From assembly GCA_900314795.1 (NCBI GenBank), contig OMWP01000001.1:16265-80264 (forward strand): DNA of 64,000 nucleotides, read 5' to 3'. How positions within the stretch are numbered: position 1 is the stretch's first letter; each line of letters begins with the position of its first letter. The notes under the pieces are model-generated. The model was given only the letters and a program-made list of their open reading frames with translations, was not told the DNA's origin and did no database searches. Source of the stretch: an uncultured Eubacteriales bacterium. GTDB taxonomy: Bacteria; Bacillota; Clostridia; Oscillospirales; Acutalibacteraceae. The translations under genes and the position numbers were made by a program. Positions 35,355-42,012 of the stretch are shown one piece after another.

Positions 35355-35566
35355 GCGCCTGAGAGCATCGCAACTCAGCCTCCGAAATTCTCAGGTGAGA
35401 TTCTGTCCGAATCATCTATTTGGGCTACAGAATCCATACAAAGGAGAGATATCCAAAAGAGGCTGAATCTTGCGATCATTCAATAACGATTTATCATAAA
35501 AATAAATTCTTTTCGGCATCGGGTTTTGTACTCGATGCCTTTTTTCTTGAAAAGCAACAAAATCGC

Positions 35567-35596
35567 TTGACTTCTCCCCTTGTTTCGTGGTACGAT
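35567..35596 (+). promoter_or_regulatory. SigA-type promoter for queT
   Basis: TTGACT-N18-TACGAT with an extended -10 TG; predicted start falls just before the preQ1 stem. Confidence 0.6.
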
Positions 35597-35604
35597 TACA
35601 CGCG

Positions 35605-35815
35605 GTCAGTTCGTAACCATCCTGACTTGGCGAGGGAGCAAAAGGCTCCTTTCGGTATAGGAGCCCGGATTGTAAAAGAGCCTTCCTTTGGGAAAGGAAG
35701 GTGTCAGCGGACACGCGTGTCTGCTGACGGATGAATTGGTTCCATTGACCAAGCGTCAGCGAGATACTATTTCACTTTTACACTTTTACCCCGCCTAAAT
35801 CAAAACTAAGGAGAC
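35605..35815 (+). ncRNA. preQ1 class I riboswitch with a ~170-nt insertion between P1 and the A-rich tail
   Basis: GTCAG-TTCGTAACCATC-CTGAC hairpin (35605-35626) has a preQ1-I-type loop; tail AAATCAAAACTAAGGAG (35797-35813) overlaps the SD of a queT gene. Confidence 0.75.
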
Positions 35816-35823
35816 AAAAGAAT

Positions 35824-36360
35824 ATGAAAGACAAACGTGTGTTGTACATCACACAAGCGGCGATCATCGCCGCGCTTTATGCCGTGCTCACGATCGGACA
35901 GAACGCGCTTTTGCCCGGTACGGCATCGGCAGCGGTACAATTCCGCGTCGCAGAGGTACTGTGCGTCCTCGCGATCTACACCCCGGCGGCGATCCCCGGT
36001 CTGACGATCGGCTGTATCATCGCCAACATCAGCTCCGTTACCGCGGGTCTGGGCTTCTATGACATGATCTTCGGCTCGCTTGCAAGCCTGCTGGCGGCAC
36101 TTGCCATGTACGGACTGCGCAATGTCCGCATCAAGAATATCCCCTTCCTCGCGTTGTTGATGCCCGCGCTCTTCAACGGCGTCATCGTAGGACTGGAGAT
36201 CTCGATCTTCTTCAGCGATACCGGCTTCAGCTTTGTCAGCTTCCTGATCACCGGCGGCTGCGTTGCGCTGGGCGAGCTCGTCGTACTGCTGGTACTGGGC
36301 ATCCCCGCCTGCCTCCTGCTCAATAAGCACGGCAAAAAGATGGGCATCGTGCTCGATTAA
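35824..36360 (+). CDS. queT: QueT-family queuosine precursor transporter
   Basis: AAIIAALYAVLT, VQFRVAEVLCVL, PGLTIGCIIAN, DMIFGSLASL, VALGE; preceded by a preQ1 aptamer. Confidence 0.88.
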   Translation: MKDKRVLYITQAAIIAALYAVLTIGQNALLPGTASAAVQFRVAEVLCVLAIYTPAAIPGLTIGCIIANISSVTAGLGFYDMIFGSLASLLAALAMYGLRNVRIKNIPFLALLMPALFNGVIVGLEISIFFSDTGFSFVSFLITGGCVALGELVVLLVLGIPACLLLNKHGKKMGIVLD

Positions 36361-36611: not shown

Positions 36612-36688
36612 CCGGGTGTGGCGCAGTTTGGTAGCGCGCTTGAATGGGGTTCAAGAGGCCGCTGGTTCGACTCCAGTCACTCGGACCA
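36612..36688 (+). tRNA. tRNA-Pro(GGG)
   Basis: Acceptor CCGGGTG/CACTCGG + ACCA; D-arm GCGCAGTTTGGTAGCGC; anticodon arm CTTGA-ATGGGGT-TCAAG; T-loop GGTTCGACTCC. Confidence 0.96.
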
Positions 36689-41860: not shown

Positions 41861-41882
41861 CGGATAACAAAAACAGAATAAG

Positions 41883-42012
41883 CCTATATAGAGTGCGCGA
41901 GGGACAAGCCCGTTGACCGCACAGCAACCTGCCGACTCTCACGACGGTAAGGTGCTAATGCTTGACCGATAGGTGAACCCGGCGCTCTTTAGGATATATC
42001 ACAAAAGGAGTG
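41883..42012 (+). ncRNA. SAM-I/IV-like riboswitch
   Basis: P1 CCTAT/ATAGG, P2 GTGCG/CGCAC, core GAGGGA..GCCC..TGA, GCAACC, AAGGTGCTAA, GCTTGACCGAT; lacks the SAM-I P4. Confidence 0.75.

Follow-up and report, generated by a model that had tools for sequence, protein, structure and literature searches.

The leader of queT in the 64,000-nucleotide stretch of DNA analysed here (the window) carries the two halves of a preQ1 riboswitch aptamer, separated by 168 nt (35628-35795) that are predicted to fold into a closed domain of their own. Sequence comparison confirms these as the halves of a genuine class I, type I preQ1 aptamer, and on balance we favour the view that the leader is a working translational OFF switch that represses queT and contains an insulated nested domain. 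The promoter, the elements on either side of the insert and the gene that follows are:

35567-35596, + strand: sigma-70-type promoter, TTGACT (-35), an 18-nt spacer and a TG-extended TACGAT (-10); found by sequence scan and conserved in clade relatives
35605-35609, + strand: P1 5' strand GUCAG; read from the window sequence, and relatives' P1 covaries
35610-35621, + strand: aptamer loop UUCGUAACCAUC (DNA TTCGTAACCATC), with UU next to the P1 5' strand and UC next to the 3' strand, as in type I
35622-35626, + strand: P1 3' strand CUGAC; formed in the minimum free energy structure (MFE) of transcripts ending at 35627, 35797 and 35815
35796-35806, + strand: L3 A-rich tail UAAAUCAAAAC; the same as the tails of uninterrupted relatives such as L116
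35807-35813, + strand: UAAGGAG, the P2 3' strand, overlapping the SD AAGGAG (35808-35813); fits the RF00522 consensus ACUAAGgA
35824-36360, + strand: queT, preQ1/queuosine-precursor transporter (ECF S component), 178 aa; Pfam PF06177, 131 bits, full length

The 5' half of the aptamer, GTCAG-TTCGTAACCATC-CTGAC, occupies 35605-35626 of the window sequence and can be extended by a sixth P1 pair between G35604 and U35627, while the tail and SD of the queT leader, TAAATCAAAACTAAGGAG, lie at 35796-35813 (AAATCAAAACTAAGGAG being 35797-35813) and end ~8-10 nt 5' of the queT ATG at 35824. In type I aptamers the UU and UC loop signatures make up the pocket for the ligand as well as the 5' side of P2. 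Type I features include UU past the P1 5' strand, a UC directly before the P1 3' strand, which is the type I specificity motif, and a conserved C closing the A-rich tail (PMC11625349). The window has a 5-bp P1 followed by UU (GUCAG/UU at 35605-35611), a UC just 5' of the P1 3' strand (...CCAUC/CUGAC at 35617-35626) and an A-rich L3 whose final conserved C is followed by UA(A)GG over the SD (UAAAUCAAAAC-UAAGGAG), all in the 5' leader of a gene for queuosine salvage or biosynthesis (QueT, PF06177, 131 bits); what it does not have is a contiguous ~34-nt aptamer free of nested helices, since P1 and L3 are 168 nt apart.

The closest known system is the queT riboswitch of Carnobacterium antarcticum (class I, type I; RF00522; PDB 7REX, 8FB3), with which the window shares a 5-bp P1, the loop pattern UUCG-N-AACCAUC, an A-rich L3 ending in C, UA(A)GG over the SD, a place upstream of queT and a translational layout (sources for the comparison: PMC10018353, PMC11625349, PMC8752633). 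The C. antarcticum sequence is UGUGG-UUCGCAACCAUC-CCACA-UAAAAAAAC-UAGGAGG (PMC10018353), and the window loop UUCGUAACCAUC is identical to this crystallised loop, UUCGCAACCAUC, save for one variable base. The known type I members are contiguous two-helix H-type pseudoknots of ~34 nt, whereas the window has a 168-nt nested domain between P1 and L3 and its relatives have hairpins of 11-58 nt there.

Uninterrupted aptamers upstream of queT, the insert-free alleles that the original prediction had proposed to look for, do occur among relatives. In locus L116 the leader reads GTGAG-TTCGTAACCATC-CTCAC-TTAAATCAAAACTAAGG, with the tail TTAAATCAAAAC-TAAGG, which is the window aptamer minus its insert save for a compensatory change in P1; in L017 it reads GGTCAG-TTCGGAACCATC-CTGACC-CAAAACAAAAC-TAAGGAGG. 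P1 covaries among the relatives (GUCAG/CUGAC, GUGAG/CUCAC, GACAG/CUGUC, GGCAG/CUGCC), and the 13-nt loop motif has a single occurrence in the window's genome, directly upstream of queT, with a reversed-pattern control that was nearly empty. The proposal of a preQ1-I aptamer in two pieces is therefore borne out, with every element in its expected place and both halves matching the type I consensus as well as the uninterrupted aptamers of relatives. It had also been proposed that P1 comes right after a good promoter, and this is the case: TTGACT and TACGAT, 18 nt apart and with an upstream TG, lie within ~8 nt of GTCAG, the predicted transcription start (~35603-35604) is 1-2 nt 5' of P1, and the same architecture, CTTGACTTCTCC...TG.TA.GAT, precedes the aptamer in every clade relative.

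The features that make up the insert are:

35629-35636, + strand: outer closing stem, 5' arm GGCG(A)GGG; pair probabilities 0.97-1.0, base covaries, common to insert-free relatives
35644-35665, + strand: hairpin GGCUCCU-UUCGGUAU-AGGAGCC, a putative degenerate solo first-hairpin module; from the MFE and comparison by eye with family copies
35671-35678, + strand: inner closing stem, 5' arm TGTAAAAG (RNA UGUAAAAG); pair probabilities 0.84-0.98
35679-35773, + strand: one REP-like multi-hairpin repeat unit; ~30 BLAST matches in the window's own genome
35775-35782, + strand: inner closing stem, 3' arm CTTTTACA (RNA CUUUUACA); MFE and ensemble pairing
35789-35795, + strand: outer closing stem, 3' arm CCCCGCC; MFE and ensemble pairing

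Folded alone, the insert has an MFE of -71.6 kcal/mol (z = -5.8), and both closing stems appear in this MFE as well as in that of the whole leader, with ensemble pair probabilities of 0.95-1.0 for the outer stem and 0.84-0.98 for the inner one, whose 3' arm sits in a tandem 8-mer (CACTTTTA twice, 35773-35788). These values agree with the idea of a closed domain that joins P1 to the A-rich tail, and the outcome that would have counted against it, folding without the closing stems, was not what we observed; an additional AAAAG/CTTTT pairing that had been suggested within the insert is absent from the MFE and was dropped. A single nucleotide, U35628, separates P1 from the outer stem, so that stacking of the two helices is possible. 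In solved type I and type II structures the L3 adenines climb the P1 minor groove towards the pocket (PMC8752633), which would put the insertion point at the P1 end that is most distant from the ligand, and we infer from the modelled fold that the outer stem can stack on that end.

The six-pair P1, including G35604-U35627, is likewise part of the MFE of the three transcripts ending upstream of the start codon. When the transcript is extended past it, the MFE instead places the P1 5' strand (UCAGUUC) opposite the AUG region, at a gain of ~1 kcal/mol, and the probability of P1 drops to 0.03 once the start codon is included (35603-35835). This modelled pairing could be an artefact or an alternative, ligand-free fold; P1 of class I preQ1 riboswitches is weak without ligand. 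On the + strand no terminator-like or promoter-like site was found inside the insert. The minus strand has a T-run after the first hairpin, and it may be that only the present orientation of the insert would permit read-through.

The original prediction had expected covariance models to miss this aptamer, and an Rfam search over 35520-35900 of the window indeed gave no match even at E ≤ 10, RF00522, with its gathering threshold of 39 bits, included. The insert is not the only reason. Uninterrupted aptamers of the order score 25.1-32.8 bits with RF00522, L116, a natural proxy for the window aptamer with its insert deleted, scores 26.4 bits, and across about 25-26 relatives' loci the model matched the uninterrupted aptamers and one variant with a 16-nt hairpin, all below threshold; that variant was the only one detected of 19 hairpin variants tested. 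The window riboswitch would thus be missed by standard annotation with or without its insert. The uninterrupted type I aptamers of the order (L017, L018, L116 and others) have 3 extra nt at the start of L3, and with scores of 25-33 bits even these ordinary aptamers would be missed in routine annotation. Models for preQ1-II and preQ1-III (RF01054, RF02680) found nothing in the window at E ≤ 10 and nothing in 25 relatives' loci at E ≤ 1-10.

How exceptional the insert is can be judged from a loop-motif search of 401 genomes from the order and 151 from the genus, for which the reversed-pattern control was almost empty, and from the 102 fetched loci with an intact P1 and tail. Uninterrupted aptamers account for 58 of these, 41 carry an insert of 11-58 nt, and three carry inserts of 168, 168 and ~195 nt, so that a closed hairpin stands at the P1/L3 junction in 44 of the 102. 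The variant occurs in at least eight families of the order, in 31 of the 58 queT-linked aptamers, and in 8 of ~74 aptamers outside the order in a class-wide sample. Among 40 unique inserts, 39 form closed hairpins that abut both P1 and the tail (shuffles: mean 14.9, maximum 23). The hairpin base covaries: with hairpin tips swapped for GAAA to hold the register and pairs picked by inspection, changes on both sides were counted at 4 of 4 pairs in a 20-sequence set (97.5% paired) and at 4 of 6 pairs in an 8-sequence clade (100% paired), in both sets far above slid and shuffled controls. Pairing of loop and tail (P2) is possible in 34 of 44 hairpin variants and 21 of 39 canonical aptamers, with U-A dominating by descent, and the loop-tail pair equivalent to C. 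antarcticum C10-G34 gave no clear covariation across the insert.

Within one genus, leaders that are otherwise identical have no hairpin (L116), one of 22 nt (L117 and L118) or an insert of ~196 nt (L119). This last insert (L119:361-556 of genome G371, minus strand) arose independently at the same P1/L3 site, in a preQ1-I aptamer that precedes queT in another family, and is closed by GGACAACAATAAT / ATTATTGTTGCCC; it was considered as a repeat and rejected, being unique in its genome. The expectation of an unusually large natural variant therefore holds in part: at 168 nt the window insert is at the large end, but a junction hairpin is no one-off in this order, and the window insert is best read as the upper end of a continuum of hairpin lengths and not as a single accident. 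A same-genus sub-clade with the hairpin has no queT in the 560 nt read (L036, L038, L040, L047, L052, L058, L060, L061, L067); the outer stem of its nested hairpin covaries, the inner part is a conserved CC(G/A)AYAGG hairpin, and AAGGAG-AAAGGCAYAGG comes next.

The repeat within the insert appears to be a later arrival. Rumen metagenome-assembled genomes (MAGs) of the same genus, labelled Ruminococcus sp., have the promoter, the 5' half, the tail and queT in common with the window, and their hairpins are 32-58 nt long and closed by TTGGCG...CGCCTAA, none of them containing the repeat; in the closest relative, L158, the hairpin is 35 nt. Repeat-free hairpins with the same closing stem indicate that the repeat landed in the tip of a hairpin that was already there, and by this comparison the outer stem TTGGCG...CGCCTAA is to be regarded as the ancestral hairpin, older than the repeat. 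The insertion can be placed in the interval between the split from the L158 lineage and the divergence of the window's genome (G000) from G019, the two species to which this particular insert is confined.

Only positions 48-146 of the insert (35675-35773) recur in the genome, with ~30 BLAST matches (among them G000 C62:181248-181342, C35:70133-70227, C63:9180-9270 and C46:65183-65292, and ~25 more), and the number of full units is about 21-30. The unit contains four hairpins (35680-35702, 35703-35728 and then two smaller ones), and its internal hairpins covary among genomic copies. First-hairpin modules, in two main sequence variants, number 69 in the 2.5 Mb genome, of which 54 fall outside ORFs of 120 aa or more; by eye, the hairpin at 35644-35665 differs from the second subfamily, GGCTCCTTTTGGTAAAAGGAGC, by two substitutions and one deletion, and looks like a degenerate solo copy of this module in its second variant. 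The description of the insert as repeat-derived accordingly fits 35675-35773 and the degenerate hairpin at 35644-35665, but not the remainder, in which the outer stem is older and repeat-free in relatives.

As in REP, BIME and REPIN elements, the copies are short, numerous, dispersed, mostly intergenic and palindromic, they form inverted doublets (nine pairs, 95-205 nt apart, often 160-200 nt), and they break assemblies, several contigs of the window's genome ending in the repeat. Unlike those elements, the unit is unusually complex, with its four hairpins, and around half of the full copies are flanked by complementary arms that vary in sequence among copies, which suggests that the unit tends to bring its own closing stem. 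The family was found among 60 relatives in G000 and G019 only, with traces in G036. A search of the genome for RAYT (PF01797, Y1_Tnp) gave 39.5 bits over model positions 2-43 only and a second match of 20.7 bits, below cut-off. Copies lie in all orientations to neighbouring genes, and a strand-specific structured RNA, either ribozyme or riboswitch, was set aside as an identity for the repeat because its copies occur in both orientations and in inverted doublets. Some copies are long variants (G000 C35:37230-37417, C67:11683-11843, C26:14347-14633), with an extra 70-190-nt module starting CTGATGAGGAGTTGTCC... between the second hairpin and the GAATTG core.

In the mechanism that we propose, transcription would begin just 5' of P1 and the P1 hairpin (35605-35626) would be made first, after which the next 168 nt would fold into a self-contained domain, consisting of the ancestral hairpin with its tip enlarged by the REP-like unit and the closing stem of that unit. 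The outer stem would stack on the far end of P1 and bring the chain back to the P1 foot, from where the A-rich tail (35796-35806) could dock in the P1 minor groove, by analogy with solved structures. With preQ1 bound, UAAGG would then pair with the loop to form P2, hiding the first bases of the SD. As a self-closing domain at a junction that tolerates hairpins, the insert would be a structurally insulated passenger.

The allele in G019, which is ~94.5% identical to the window across the region and has the insert as well, provides a measure of selection on the leader. Differences between the two are distributed as follows:

upstream intergenic DNA: 29/212
promoter spacer: 5/38
after queT: 8/57
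TspO gene: 4.0%
queT gene: 3.5%
5' aptamer half: 0/23
insert: 4/170
tail and SD: 0/26

The leader thus differs at 4 of 219 positions (1.8%) and the flanking non-coding DNA at 42 of 307 (13.7%; Fisher p = 4.6e-7), and the comparison with flanking DNA also holds for the insert (p = 1.8e-5), for its non-repeat part (1/71, p = 0.0015) and for the two aptamer halves alone (p = 0.003). Such values speak against a disabled relic, in which the repeat would have moved the tail too far or caused misfolding, leaving queT without a preQ1 response and either constitutive or otherwise controlled. A decaying leader should diverge like the adjoining non-coding DNA, yet neither half has changed, the closing stems are intact in both species, and the independent ~196-nt insert has been kept at the same site in L119. 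Although the insert has three times the length of even the longest of the 41 ordinary hairpins, RF00522 fails to match, the MFE of the longest construct lacks P1 and the allele occurs in two species only, all of which could point to loss of function, we consider a relic unlikely. The whole leader would instead appear to be under purifying selection, which we take as indirect support for ligand control.

The conservation of the insert could, in part, reflect constraint on the repeat itself or concerted evolution and not riboswitch function, as another orthologous copy of the repeat is equally conserved between G000 and G019 (0/91 differences). Taken further, this leads to a composite leader whose repeat would be retained for something it does itself, such as binding a protein, blocking an RNase or exerting a REP function at the DNA level, whether or not the riboswitch works, and in which that role, and not aptamer geometry, would explain why the insert is conserved. 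The conserved sequence of the family and the covariation of its hairpins genome-wide would fit such a role, but the non-repeat part of the insert is conserved too, as are the aptamer halves, and the orientation of copies in every direction relative to genes speaks against a strand-specific RNA function; we regard this reading as rather improbable. There is scarcely any prospect that the hairpin has nothing to do with the A-rich SD region and that the two merely resemble an aptamer by chance: each half is short and Rfam is silent, but the loop motif is single in the genome and directly 5' of queT, and in dozens of relatives hairpins of every length stand between these same two halves, next to the same promoter and gene, a comparative series that already contradicts coincidence. 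The reading we prefer is still that of a translational OFF switch with a passenger domain.

The preQ1-I aptamer is the textbook example of a minimal riboswitch and is a favoured model in structural, folding and drug-screening studies. The census raises the possibility, for which we would give about even chances, that type I has an unrecognised three-stem form in which a hairpin stacked under P1 is nested at the P1/L3 junction, a form that would predominate upstream of queT in the Oscillospirales of rumen and gut, be missed by Rfam and stay functional with nested domains of up to ~200 nt. Inserted or optional helices in class I preQ1 riboswitches are not mentioned in the 2024 family review or the type I structure papers, and the 2014 type-consensus alignments (McCown et al.) may include them; we therefore treat the hairpin variant as undescribed in the searchable literature, which is not to say that it is proven new. 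Class III preQ1 riboswitches occur in the same order, in Faecalibacterium and Subdoligranulum (PMC11625349). Like the class II and class III riboswitches, which are HLout pseudoknots with an embedded hairpin, the window leader would, as judged from its sequence, be a three-stem pseudoknot that senses preQ1 upstream of queT; those classes have another fold and other nucleotides in the pocket, and in them the embedded hairpin belongs to the conserved architecture.

If the three-stem form is real, the P1/L3 junction would be a natural landing pad, able to take in a mobile repeat and keep ligand control intact, and the window a concrete case of a regulatory RNA that has done so and yet is under purifying selection. 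A widespread nested-helix form tolerating 11 to ~200 nt would revise the consensus architecture of preQ1-I and explain many unannotated queT leaders in rumen and gut Clostridia, and it would offer a naturally validated graft site on a 34-nt aptamer for crystallisation, cryo-EM and reporter modules.

The window's genome encodes TGT (523 bits, C48:15711-16793) and no convincing QueC, the best match being 20.6 bits over 60 positions in a 391-aa frame (C16:15318-15515), so queT is probably its route for salvage of queuosine precursors; this suggests that the organism depends on salvage through QueT. The gene upstream of the queT leader encodes a TspO/MBR protein and has its own terminator. Elsewhere in the window Rfam identified a tRNA just downstream of queT (36612-36685, 59.4 bits) and a SAM-I riboswitch (41881-41975, 58.3 bits).
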